A stretch of 64,000 nt of DNA from Bacillota bacterium (GTDB lineage: Bacteria > Bacillota > Clostridia > Clostridiales > Clostridiaceae), in the NCBI GenBank assembly GCA_030706015.1, contig JAUZPI010000003.1, positions 7,004-71,003 on the forward strand, written 5' to 3'. Of the stretch, positions 1-27,313 are shown in pieces. The translations under genes and the position numbers were made by a program. Within the stretch, counting starts at the first letter, position 1. Every line of letters starts with the position of its first letter. The notes under the pieces were generated by a model. It did no database searches, had not been told where the DNA came from, and saw nothing but the letters and a program-made list of their open reading frames with translations.

Positions 1-412
1 AGCGCTTATCTGTATTTAAGCTGAGTGGGTCCTCGTTTTTGTAGTACACTTGATACTTTAGGGATTCATCTGCAAACTTCGCTACACTCTCAACTACCTC
101 TATTGTTACCTTGGGCCATACCTCTGTTATTTTCTCTCTAAAAAGGTTTTCGTACCTCTCAGGAATAAGAAAATAGAAATTAACTTCATTTTTCTTTAAA
201 TCTATCATGAAGCTGCATTTACTCGGTGCTTCAACCTTCCATGCTTTTTCATCCCTACTTATCCTCTGCATGAGGCCTTTACTTAAGTGATTTATAGTTC
301 TAGCTATTGCAGTACTGTTATAATTGCGAATAGACGTATCTGGAATTAATCGTAGGATTACGTATCTTGGTTTCACTACCTTAAAATATTCACTTAGTTT
401 CAAACTCCTCAT
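1..412 (-). CDS. Hypothetical protein, N-terminal 137 codons only (runs off the left edge). Its position after two small membrane proteins would fit a VirB4-like gene, but no motif is visible in this part.
   Basis: My own minus-strand translation: the ATG at 412..410 directly abuts the TAA (415..413) of the upstream ORF. MRSLKLSEYFKVVKPRYVILRLIPDTSIRNYNSTAIARTINHL... stays open to position 1. It is absent from the ORF track because it is truncated. Confidence 0.45.
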   Translation of the reverse strand, partial: MRSLKLSEYFKVVKPRYVILRLIPDTSIRNYNSTAIARTINHLSKGLMQRISRDEKAWKVEAPSKCSFMIDLKKNEVNFYFLIPERYENLFREKITEVWPKVTIEVVESVAKFADESLKYQVYYKNEDPLSLNTDKR

Positions 413-616
413 TTAGAATACTCCATTTAGTAGGACCATTACTGCATATCCAAATAGAGTTATAATAGAAGCATTCAATCCTTTTTTCCATCCTACAATA
501 TAAGCAATAATAAATGCTGTTCCCAGGAGCATAGCTACAATATAACTATACCCAAATATACATGCCCATATTGAATGTCCTATACTTGCAAAACCAGATT
601 TCAGAAAATCCAACAT
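413..616 (-). CDS. Small membrane protein with two hydrophobic helices (VirB3-like by position only)
   Basis: 67 aa with two long hydrophobic stretches (IWACIFGYSYIVAMLLGTAFIIAYIV and ASIITLFGYAVMVLLNGVF). Tightly packed between ORFs on the same strand. Confidence 0.5.
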   Translation of the reverse strand: MLDFLKSGFASIGHSIWACIFGYSYIVAMLLGTAFIIAYIVGWKKGLNASIITLFGYAVMVLLNGVF

Positions 617-629
617 AGCAAATACCCCC

Positions 630-1010
630 TTAATTTCCGAAACTCTTAATTAGGTTCAACAGATCTAGAAAGAAAAATATAAAGGCATAACCTACCAAGT
701 ACTTTACGCCAGTTCTGACTATCTGTTTAATGTCAGAATTCCCGAGGTCGGTTATCATGTCCTTACTTGCAAAGATAGCTGCCGCCCAGTACCCTATAGT
801 AAGCATTATCTTCCACATAGCTAAACCCATTTTATTAGCTTTTGCAATATTATCATCCACTCCAGCTGCCAAAACGTGAAGGCTCCCTTGAGTTAAACAA
901 AGAGATACTACCATAAAGCTTATCTTTGCTACTGTAAATAATAATTTCTTAGTTCTATCACTTAATAAAGGTTTCTTTTTTCTCTTACAATAAAAAACAT
1001 GAAATTGCAT
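630..1010 (-). CDS. Secreted or membrane protein with VirB2/TrbC-pilin-like architecture (signal peptide plus two TM helices)
   Basis: Basic N-region KRKKKPLLSDRTKK, a hydrophobic core, LHVLA|AG, then two hydrophobic helices separated by a charged loop (SKDMITDLGNSDIKQIVR). The call rests on architecture only. Confidence 0.4.
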   Translation of the reverse strand: MQFHVFYCKRKKKPLLSDRTKKLLFTVAKISFMVVSLCLTQGSLHVLAAGVDDNIAKANKMGLAMWKIMLTIGYWAAAIFASKDMITDLGNSDIKQIVRTGVKYLVGYAFIFFFLDLLNLIKSFGN

Positions 1011-1080
1011 AATACCCCCTGTATAAAAAATTGATAATAGGAAAAAATATGAATAGTTAATAGTGAAAGGATTGATTGTT

Positions 1081-1155
1081 ATGCCAATATTGGTTGTTGG
1101 AGCTTTAATTTTAGCAGCTGTTTCTGAATCAGTTTTATTTAATTATTACTATTAA
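1081..1155 (+). CDS. 24-aa hydrophobic mini-protein (type I toxin-like candidate)
   Basis: AAAGGA lies 10 nt upstream of the ATG. Peptide MPILVVGALILAAVSESVLFNYYY, stop TAA. Followed by ~130 nt of untranslated sequence and an intrinsic terminator at 1285..1317. Below the ORF-track size cut-off. Confidence 0.45.
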   Translation: MPILVVGALILAAVSESVLFNYYY

Positions 1156-1284
1156 TTGTTAAACCTTTGAAAAATAATCAAGAAAATAACGTAAACTAGC
1201 ATAATTTCACTACCTACTCGCATATGCTGAAAGTGTAGCGCAGTGAAGCGAGAGCGAATGTAGCGCACTTAAAGCTTGATGCCT

Positions 1285-1317
1285 AAGTCTACCCTTCTTC
1301 GGTAGGCTTATTTTTTT
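1285..1317 (+). terminator. Intrinsic terminator of the 1081..1155 transcript
   Basis: aagtctacc / ggtaggctt stem (one G-U pair), 7-nt loop, then a TTTTTTT run on the plus strand only. Confidence 0.6.
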
Positions 1318-1322
1318 ACGGT

Positions 1323-1565
1323 TTATTCCCCCAATATGCTTGATATGGCATTAGAAACACTCTTATCTAATTTATTATCTTTTACAGGCTCCCTGACTTC
1401 TGGCGGTGGATTATTCTGAATTGTGATATTTGCATATCTGTATTTTAGAAAGAATCTTACAGCATCTTTAATAAAGCAACTCCTATTCCCTTGCCCTTTT
1501 ATCTCTAGAAGTAATTTAATATCTTCATCTGTTTCCTTAAAACTTAGAGGAATTGTTTTAGACAT
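1323..1565 (-). CDS. Ribbon-helix-helix (CopG/Arc-like) DNA-binding protein candidate
   Basis: N-terminus MSKTIPLSFKETDEDIKLLLEIKGQGNRSCFIKDAVRFFL has a beta-strand plus two-helix pattern. Inverted repeats tagatagaa/ttctatcta lie in its upstream region (about 1600..1645). Confidence 0.45.
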   Translation of the reverse strand: MSKTIPLSFKETDEDIKLLLEIKGQGNRSCFIKDAVRFFLKYRYANITIQNNPPPEVREPVKDNKLDKSVSNAISSILGE

Positions 1566-1741
1566 ATATATTTCTGCTCCTTTCTATATAGATTTAGATA
1601 GAAATATCTATAGGTTGCCATTAGGTTTGAATGCTTTTCTATCTAGTTCTATATATATCTATGTAGTTTTGTATAGAAAATTGCCTGTCCCCTTTAATTT
1701 TTTATAAAATTTTTCTAAAAAGTTAAATAAAAAAATAGCAT

Positions 1742-1960
1742 CTACTCAAGATGCCATATTTCCTCTACTCTTTTATTAAGTTTTTTAGCTACCTTTAGAG
1801 CTATAAGTAAAGGTGGAGTTGATTCTTCATTCTCCCACTTTATGTACGTTTGTATTGATATATCTATCATTCTGGCAAATTCACTTTTACTATCAATCAT
1901 GTATTCCTTAAGTCTTATCTCTTTTAATTTGCATTTAAAACCTTTACTCAAGTTAATCAC
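1742..1960 (-). CDS. XRE-family helix-turn-helix transcriptional regulator
   Basis: 72 aa. KEIRLKEYMIDSKSEFARMIDISIQTYIKWENEES is a typical HTH_3 pattern. A hairpin gcatct/agatgc plus U-run overlaps the stop codon. Confidence 0.75.
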   Translation of the reverse strand: MINLSKGFKCKLKEIRLKEYMIDSKSEFARMIDISIQTYIKWENEESTPPLLIALKVAKKLNKRVEEIWHLE

Positions 1961-2041
1961 CTCACAACTTTAGCATATGTATTATTTCGCCAACTGGTTA
2001 TAAAATCCTTTATTTGGTAATAATTTAGCTGAGGTGATTTT

Positions 2042-2152
2042 ATGTATTTTTGTTTGGAGGTATTAAGTATTCTGATATTAATATTAATGTTATTAGTACC
2101 GATTTGTATTGTATATATTATAGCTTTATTAAGTGCAAAAAAGATGATTTAA
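2042..2152 (+). CDS. 36-aa hydrophobic mini-protein (type I toxin-like or holin-like candidate), divergent from the XRE gene
   Basis: GAGGTG lies 5 nt upstream of the ATG. Peptide MYFCLEVLSILILILMLLVPICIVYIIALLSAKKMI, stop TAA. A terminator follows at 2172..2212. Confidence 0.5.
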   Translation: MYFCLEVLSILILILMLLVPICIVYIIALLSAKKMI

Positions 2153-2171
2153 TGTGAAAATAAGATAAAGA

Positions 2172-2212
2172 AAAACGATTGGTTTTAAAGAATGAAACCT
2201 ATCGTTTTTTTA
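2172..2212 (+). terminator. Intrinsic terminator
   Basis: aacgat-t-ggttt ... aaacc-t-atcgtt stem followed by TTTTTTT. Confidence 0.6.
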
Positions 2213-2452
2213 TAAAATTCATGTATTATTAATTCAAATAGGAAGAAAAGTGGCTTAAGACAGCATAATGCAAGCACTTAGTAGCATTTACAACCTATTA
2301 AAATTTACAAAAGAAATAAGCAGTATTGTTAAAATAAGCTCAGTTACAAGCAGAAAATTAACAATACTTCATAATGAAAAGGACATGTTATTACTTCATT
2401 AGAAGTTTTGACATATTCACTGTTTTTTAACCCCCAGATTTATAACATAAAA

Positions 2453-26991: not shown

Positions 26992-27313
26992 TTATAACCA
27001 TATTGGAACCATATCTATCCCTCCAACTTACCATAAAACAGGGTGCATTTTAACACTTCCTTAATCTACTAGCCATATAGGTGCCATAATTTTCACTTCC
27101 TAACGATACCATAATGGAGTCATATTATTCACTCCCATCCCACAGGCATATCACCATCTCCTTTTATCCTAATAAAATAGGCATGTTGTCACACATCCTT
27201 ATAAAAGTATTACTGGCAACTTAAACACTCCTTATAAAACCAATATAGGCATCTCTACCACTCCTAATGATTGCAAATTATTCGAATAATACTAAACCCC
27301 ATAAAATCGGCAT
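26992..27313 (-). other. Tandem array of nine SD-led minigenes (6-11 codons each)
   Basis: Hand reverse-complement gives these units. 27278..27313 MPILWGLVLFE. 27232..27252 MPILVL. 27199..27219 (TTG start) MPVILL. 27164..27184 MPILLG. 27129..27149 MPVGWE. 27100..27123 MTPLWYR. 27061..27087 MAPIWLVD. 27028..27048 MHPVLW. 26992..27012 MVPIWL. Eight units have GGAG, GGAAG or GGAGG 7-8 nt upstream of the start; the fourth has a weaker AAGGAT about 10 nt upstream. Stops abut or overlap the next SD. Confidence 0.6.

Follow-up and report, generated by a model that had tools for sequence, protein, structure and literature searches.

Does a small hydrophobic reading frame with a long stretch of apparently untranslated sequence behind it and a terminator at its end make a toxin mRNA, a chance frame in a spacer, or a unit of another kind? 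The question is raised by a 64,000-nucleotide (nt) stretch of DNA from a Bacillota bacterium of the Clostridiaceae (GenBank assembly GCA_030706015.1, contig JAUZPI010000003.1, positions 7,004 to 71,003 of the forward strand), referred to throughout as the window. Near its start, a first-pass annotation described a plus-strand transcription unit consisting of a 24-codon open reading frame (ORF) with its own Shine-Dalgarno (SD) sequence, ~130 nt of untranslated RNA and a terminator, likened the unit to the mRNAs of type I toxins, and pointed to a duplicated 9-mer in the 3' region and to a match between the start of the ORF and one of the phage minigenes arrayed 26 kb away. The ORF, SD, terminator, repeat and minigene match are all to be found in the window sequence. 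On the comparative evidence set out below, the 24-codon ORF is a genuine conserved gene for a small membrane peptide of Clostridium-type prophages, unannotated until now, and the so-called 3' untranslated region (UTR) is a conserved structured RNA, previously uncatalogued, that is likely more than an untranslated tail.

The gene runs from the ATG at 1081 to the TAA at 1155 on the plus strand and encodes a hydrophobic single-helix peptide of 24 amino acids (aa), MPILVVGALILAAVSESVLFNYYY; read from the sequence, its SD is AAAGGA at 1066..1071, 9 nt 5' of the ATG. It is divergent from an operon for two transmembrane (TM) proteins and a P-loop ATPase, and an alignment of this ATPase served as the query with which related loci were gathered, 12 genomic and 80 viral, 79 of which are distinct and have sufficient upstream sequence. 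An SD-led hydrophobic ORF of 18-32 aa lies on the strand opposite to the ATPase, ~600-1000 nt upstream of the ATPase start, in 50 of these 79 loci, and the homologous ORFs also keep the SD at similar spacing. The first-pass annotation had suggested that homologues of the peptide be sought beside genes like those of a type IV secretion system (T4SS); a syntenic ORF is indeed there in these 50 loci, and the genes beside it belong to a phage module. A second sample comprised 10 genomes of the same family, picked independently by the RNA model described below, and here the ORF precedes the RNA in six of the eight new loci examined.

Substitutions within the family speak to the coding status of the frame. 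Across 48 ORF pairs that are 70-99% identical, codon positions 1, 2 and 3 have accumulated 203, 57 and 226 substitutions, respectively, and the depletion at position 2 marks the ORF as protein-coding; the codon-position pattern is a signature of selection for hydrophobic residues. The family peptides are 20-30 aa long and hydrophobic, with a mean hydropathy above 1, and their sequences diverge strongly (for example, MFWVGIGLVAVSSTVLTFFY, MSPLFWFGAGMIIATHIIEKF, MLFTIACTALGVSAGIEIALRLLA and MEFLFFCSSTYVVLELLKTICCK), with length, frame and hydrophobicity retained. The nearest homologue of the window peptide is MIIMFIVIAGLTLAAVSEFALFVLY, encoded in genome G034 and starting MIIMFIV. At its C-terminus the window peptide reads ...LFNYYY, and the homologues end with 0-2 charged residues. 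Searches of the peptide against Pfam and PHROGs, toxin families included, gave no match, and the gene is not annotated in the public records of the phages phiCp-D and TPDSL_ph2.

Two conserved elements flank the gene. On its 5' side, within the 70-nt control region that it shares with the divergent operon, a (T/A)ATAAAA block at 1022..1028 (plus strand) is kept in 14 of 15 aligned homologous loci. This is where the first-pass annotation had placed a TATAAA-like -10 element: the sequence is present and conserved, but TATAAA at 1022..1027 lacks the T6 of a -10 element, and no consensus -35 was found. The block may be a weak candidate -10 for the peptide gene, or else part of the leader of the divergent operon. 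On the 3' side, a TTGT(A/T)AAA motif stands directly after the stop codon (1156..1164, plus strand) and in the same place in most homologues, where it is retained as TTGTAAA...TTGTTAAC. A search for sigma-A promoters of the peptide gene, of a post-stop antisense RNA and of a short RNA returned nothing consistent across loci; minus-strand TACAAT and TTGTAA, the latter as a -35, were tried as promoter candidates and dropped on account of their inconsistency between loci.

What, then, is the sequence that follows the gene? A covariance model, R1, describes a conserved RNA motif at 1175..1316 on the plus strand (100.5 bits, E ~1e-17), the sole copy in the window and in the genome. The model finds the motif in nine of the 148 other family genomes that it was run on and in none of the 146 taken from different families within the class. 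Rfam 15 contains nothing that reaches its gathering score anywhere in the window, a relaxed search of 900..2300 returned only chance matches of at most 21 bits, and a tRNA scan found nothing. Homologues share a layout that comprises, in order, the post-stop TTGTAAA, an A/T-rich stretch, GCATA, a helix designated P1 with a variable G+C-rich apex, a short linker and the terminator.

Helix P1 covaries. In the window, P1 spans 1220..1282 (plus strand), with a 5' arm at 1226..1235, a 3' arm at 1266..1275 and a GCAU/AUGC base formed by 1220..1223 and 1279..1282. RNAalifold finds the base of P1, where five of six pairs carry compensatory changes. In a structure-blind alignment of 27 sequences, P1 pairing reaches 88%, with double changes at six of seven pairs, and none of 500 shuffles did as well; sliding the 3' partner as a control lowers the pairing to 33-52%. 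The result stands with 43 distinct sequences, among which one pair is AU in 21 and GC in 21, and another is UA in 18, AU in 13, GC in two and CG in one. The fold of the window RNA agrees with the family consensus.

The terminator lies at 1284..1317 (plus strand) and consists of a 10-bp stem at 1284..1310 and seven T residues at 1311..1317, a G+C-containing stem-loop with a U run immediately behind it; terminator-like sites number three in the region, against 0.6 expected. Its stem sequence is conserved across the family (AAGTCTAnCC...GGnTAGGCTT), and 37 of the 43 members have a U.G pair in it. The terminator counts 29 G.U pairs against 7 A.C pairs, an excess from which we conclude that its structure belongs to a transcript of the ORF strand. 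The RNA motif is also found in two Clostridiaceae genomes where it has no peptide ORF before it and lies apart from the ATPase operon (L109 1501..1640; L114 1501..1638, minus strand), which argues that the RNA can stand alone, or be its own gene; in L114 it is preceded by an extended -10, TGgTATACT. The transcription unit of the first-pass annotation is borne out as a module that joins a translated small hydrophobic peptide to a long functional 3' region, both of them conserved in many phages, but its ~130 nt of untranslated RNA is a conserved structured RNA with a probable promoter of its own.

The case for that promoter begins with the alignment of the family, where, within the RNA region proper, no column is invariant other than CATA and a T four bases later. 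Sigma-K and sigma-E, the mother-cell sigma factors, share a -10 element and differ in the -35, where the former has AC and the latter ATA (PMC3789822); the mapped sigma-K promoters of Clostridioides difficile have the same look, with the transcription start ~6 nt past the -10 (Table S7 of PMC3789822). An AC is found 15-17 nt upstream of CATAnnnT in 35 of 58 matches of model R1, as against 15% of background CATAnnnT sites, and in 10 matches, the window included, a [GT][AC]ATA[AT][AT] element takes its place 14-15 nt upstream. The putative mother-cell-type promoter of the window occupies 1199..1228 on the plus strand: a sigma-E-like -35, GCATAAT, at 1199..1205, a 15-nt spacer, and a -10 of the CATAnnnT(A) type, CATATGCT, at 1221..1228, with a predicted start at ~1234. 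From these features the RNA probably has an internal promoter of sigma-E/K type, sigma-E-like in the window and sigma-K-like in most relatives.

The same motif recurs before genes on the other strand. Where the model gives weak matches on the opposite strand, these turn out to be hairpin-free copies of the promoter motif that precede the SD and start of RHH-like or XRE-like genes by 25-60 nt. On the operon strand, AC-N16/17-(G)CATAnnnTA followed by an SD and a start codon is present within 1.5 kb in 25 of 43 loci, L013, L031, L080, L084 and L094 among them, where 0.09 would be expected. In the window, a sigma-K-like motif, AAC-N17-CATATGCTA, lies at 1971..2001, immediately before an XRE gene (1742..1960; both on the minus strand), and has homologous counterparts elsewhere. 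At other loci, the position of the window's RHH-like gene is taken by a homologous gene with the conserved 'SFKET..DIKLY' and a sigma-K-like promoter. The host itself provides a comparison, as its cotJ operon carries AC-16-AATATACTA. No Sigma70_r2 match, as would mark a phage-encoded sigma factor, was found inside the prophage. The motifs before the XRE and RHH genes suggest that mother-cell sporulation sigma factors drive the entire cassette.

The duplicated 9-mer falls within this RNA. Both copies of tgtagcgca, at 1234..1242 and 1259..1267 (plus strand) as first described, lie in the G+C-rich apical part of P1 and partly pair together, and none of 300 shuffles of this 50-nt stretch produced a 9-nt direct repeat. 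Of 43 members of the RNA family, 15 contain significant internal direct repeats, the repeated words differing by member (TAACGTAGT, ACGTAGTA, TAGCGTA and others). A two-state switch in which the 9-mer acts as a second full partner of the P1 5' arm was considered and rejected as a family rule, a second complementary site being present in four of 39. In our reading of the alignments, the 9-mer would be a local duplication in the variable P1 apex, a trait that recurs across the family without a conserved two-state switch, and it may supply two copies of a recognition sequence. The predicted start at ~1234 implies that the short RNA would begin at the first copy of the 9-mer and would not contain the 5' arm of P1.

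The genes around the unit place it in a prophage and in an antisense setting. The divergent operon, on the minus strand throughout, opens with a gene for a 126-aa TM protein (630..1010), followed by one for a 67-aa TM protein (413..616) and by that of the 774-aa P-loop ATPase, which starts at 412, runs off the window and matches phrog_5156 over its full length (E 1.7e-95). The TM-TM-ATPase module thereby covers 1..1010 of the window and the sequence upstream of it (L009 5091..8013). Relatives of the ATPase occur in 93 phage records, whose named hosts belong to Bacillus, Geobacillus, Lysinibacillus, Brevibacillus, Alicyclobacillus, Clostridium and Terrisporobacter, all of them endospore-forming genera. 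The reading of this trio as VirB2, VirB3 and a large protein, T4SS-like or from a conjugative element, has given way to that of a phage module in view of phrog_5156 and the phage records; a plasmid search with 1..2400 gave no match, and the ATPase found no PDB, Pfam or NCBIfam assignment, with weak matches to a TraD P-loop and PADLOC mad8 only. In Clostridium phage phiCp-D and Terrisporobacter phage TPDSL_ph2, the module comes after the lysis genes, from which it follows that the unit sits inside the window's prophage, at its lysis-proximal end. Phages of Bacillus and Geobacillus that have the ATPase lack the divergent peptide/RNA unit.

Past the ATPase, at L009 4484..4981 on the minus strand, there are an 87-aa ORF and a 70-aa protein that is nothing but a DNA-binding domain of LexA type; the type IV pilin genes of the host start beyond these two, which probably marks the prophage boundary. 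On the other side, an 80-aa RHH-like gene of phrog_18533 (1323..1565, minus strand) is convergent with the peptide/RNA unit. Its product, with a conserved N-terminal 'SFKET..DIKLY', is probably an RHH-type regulator, and the gene is a recurrent partner right before the unit in many loci. Between 1565 and 1010 no minus-strand terminator was found, and read from the minus strand the plus-strand terminator is not followed by a U run, so that transcripts of the RHH gene should cross the unit in antisense into the ATPase operon. The flanking genes have an identical co-directional arrangement in phiCp-D and TPDSL_ph2. Farther out, divergent from the XRE gene, a hydrophobic 36-aa ORF whose tail is basic (...SAKKMI) and which has a terminator of its own occupies 2042..2152 on the plus strand; it is more like classical type I toxins than the 24-aa peptide is.

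How might these parts work together? The explanation that we put forward, as quite possible if somewhat short of probable, casts the peptide gene and the embedded small RNA as cis-antisense partners in a sporulation-wired prophage operon. The locus would be a two-part accessory unit of Clostridiaceae prophages, composed of a single-helix membrane peptide of ~24 aa and a structured RNA. The RNA, that is, P1 and the sequence-conserved terminator, would form the 3' end of the peptide mRNA and would also be made as a short transcript of ~80 nt from the internal mother-cell-type promoter, starting near 1234; in this short form, missing the P1 5' arm, the repeat-bearing segment would be left unpaired. 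The unit lies in antisense in the gap between the RHH-like gene and the TM-TM-ATPase operon, in a setting where the RHH and XRE genes of relatives share its promoter type. Peptide mRNA and short RNA could then pair in cis with the operon transcript, and such antisense pairing might, while the lysogen sporulates, link the expression of the ATPase module with that of the peptide or restrain both. A broader version seems to us distinctly unlikely. It would have the whole cassette (XRE, RHH, small RNA, mini-peptide, two membrane proteins and HerA/FtsK-like ATPase) run by host mother-cell sigma factors as a translocation or spore-entry/exclusion device under antisense RNA control, with the peptides of the phage's array of nine minigenes as mimics of the mini-peptide N-terminus.

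Several observations sit awkwardly with the antisense-partner proposal. The AC-type -35 that prevails in relatives is not that of the window, where no AC is present 15-17 nt upstream of the -10, and a weight matrix built from AC sites finds nothing in the window; the promoter of the window's own RHH gene resembles the motif only loosely. A short RNA that lacks the 5' arm of P1 does not account for the covariation of P1, which needs the long peptide mRNA or an opposite-strand transcript. The strand is not settled by counts in P1, where G.U and A.C pairs number 8 and 3. The ORF is kept with a plain terminator and no RNA motif in 16 loci, from which it follows that peptide gene and RNA can be parted and may each have a function of its own. 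Pairing between ribosome-binding sites and the 3' region offers little help: for the peptide's own site, a comparison of cognate and non-cognate duplex energies detects no cognate-specific pairing (p = 0.48), and for the operon's site there is a weak pairing signal with p = 0.02, in a comparison that leaves relatedness uncontrolled. On the strength of the p = 0.48, a long-distance 5'-3' pairing like that of hok, fst and aapA was rejected, and the ORF and 3' region are likewise without a pairing signal.

One rival is the classical type I toxin-antitoxin (TA) pair, in which a membrane-damaging peptide encoded by a stable mRNA would be held in check by antisense read-through or a minus-strand small RNA (sRNA), and the pair would stabilize the prophage or abort infection. 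Toxins this short do exist, the Ibs toxins of Escherichia coli having 18-19 aa, and the window unit has much that recommends it: a small hydrophobic peptide with its own SD, a long structured 3' region, a strong terminator and, if the RHH promoter fires, unavoidable antisense transcription across the unit. Its place in a prophage accessory region is also the usual one for type I systems of Firmicutes (PMC6563280). The likeness noted in the first-pass annotation is accurate in size, hydrophobicity and structured 3' region; a conserved minus-strand antitoxin unit of promoter plus terminator was looked for at the loci and none was found, and the C-terminus has no charged or lysine-rich tail of the kind seen in the known Clostridial and Bacillus toxins of 28-60 aa. 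Known Clostridial type I toxins measure 34-59 aa and have lysine-rich ends (PMC6563280). No toxin family in Pfam or PHROGs matches the peptide, there is one unit per genome and always beside one operon, where type I loci are typically multi-copy and in varied contexts, and an antisense RNA made specifically in sporulation could not be a constitutive antitoxin. We consider a type I system unlikely. That the ORF is a chance frame and the region a spacer with a terminator is scarcely credible: the ORF is short, the genome AT-rich and database matches are lacking, but frame, SD and hydrophobicity are kept in dozens of diverged loci, the substitutions are of coding type, and the RNA covaries.

Alternatively, the peptide could serve the TM-TM-ATPase machine as a small subunit or an assembly factor, or could inhibit it, in which case the 3' structure would only stabilize or terminate the mRNA and the promoter-like bases would be kept for another reason. 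Small single-helix partners of membrane ATPases and transporters have precedents in KdpF and AcrZ. The synteny of peptide and operon persists down to ~35-40% ATPase identity, and the 16 loci in which the ORF has a plain terminator point to a peptide role linked to the ATPase module. A subunit would normally be expected to be co-transcribed with its machine, however, and this gene is divergent; the conservation of the RNA exceeds what a terminator needs, with its invariant CATA..T, its conserved stem sequence and covarying P1; the RNA also occurs without the ORF, and the promoter motif recurs before genes on the other strand. On balance we think such a role unlikely.

The remaining rival concerns the minigene array, which might be derived from, or mimic, the initiation region or N-terminus of the peptide gene and serve as a regulator decoy or a source of mimic peptides. 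The first-pass annotation had thought along these lines, proposing amplified initiation regions of such genes, and the similarity on which it built is real. The first 15 nt of the ORF are identical to minigene 2 (27238..27252, minus strand) at 14 positions, and the 5.1-Mb genome has no third site of this kind. Carried on to the SD, which stands at equal spacing, the alignment agrees at 22 of 28 nt; 1.7% of shuffled sequences and 0.8% of genuine SD+ATG segments score as high, and of 24,270 SD+ATG sites only one other outside the array is within one mismatch of any minigene start. Starts of the form M-x-P-[ILV]-[ILFWV], a motif defined after the data had been seen, are found in three of 29 peptide subfamilies, compared with 0.7-1% in the background. 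On the other hand, the MPILV start is not conserved in the family, whose nearest members begin MIIMF, MFWVG and MFTAF, and the agtgaaa said to be shared with the SD regions of minigenes 6 and 7 turns out to be noise, with 25 occurrences in the window against 17.5 expected and a single exact copy in the array. The similarity to minigene 2 is therefore statistically unusual (p ~0.01-0.02) as alignments go, but chosen after the fact, and we regard a descent or mimicry of this kind as very unlikely. Within the array (26992..27313, minus strand), MTPLW, MAPIW, MVPIW, MHPVLW and MPILW resemble the starts of small-ORF subfamilies in other phages (MSPLFW..., MCPLTW..., MPLV...); such resemblance between minigene peptides and N-termini may be chance among hydrophobic starts.

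The locus adds two elements to the temperate phages of Clostridium-type spore formers, namely an unannotated family of small proteins and an uncatalogued RNA motif supported by covariation, and what passed for a long 3' UTR is a conserved functional element in itself. Both elements are tied, via sporulation-like promoters, to the widespread and uncharacterized phage ATPase module phrog_5156. If these promoters are real, they offer a concrete, testable way of asking how prophages match the timing of their gene expression to the mother cell in sporulation, a matter on which there is little molecular detail beyond the skin and SPbeta excision systems.

Comparison with known systems helps to define what is familiar here and what is not. 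The promoter elements correspond to those of mother-cell sigma-K and sigma-E promoters (PMC3789822; PMC517825) in the CATAnnnT(A) -10, the AC or ATA at -35 and a spacer of ~16-17 nt, with the qualification that here they are known from sequence only and that the window has the ATA type. With the type I TA systems of Firmicute prophages (TxpA/RatA, BsrG/SR4 and YonT/SR6 of Bacillus subtilis, CD0956.2-RCd10 of C. difficile and its relatives), the unit has in common a hydrophobic peptide, a location in the prophage accessory region, a structured 3' region, a strong terminator and convergent transcription. It departs from them in that the window's family has 20-30 aa, no charged tail, no dedicated antitoxin sRNA gene that could be found, a single copy at one operon and no sequence similarity. 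Like lambda bar minigenes, with which the array invites comparison, the gene is a tiny SD-led phage ORF, but it has 24 codons, is conserved as a protein and lies outside any array. Short antisense units within longer operons, with overlapping transcripts, are familiar from excludon-type convergent units and from lambda oop and P22 sar; the window unit has, in addition, a conserved peptide and a covarying hairpin. A parallel in layout is found in the enterobacterial sRNAs DapZ and MicL, which are embedded in 3' UTRs, have their own internal promoters and share their terminators with the mRNA. The same layout is predicted here, with a promoter of the sporulation sigma-E/K type and, as the parent gene, a prophage mini-peptide.

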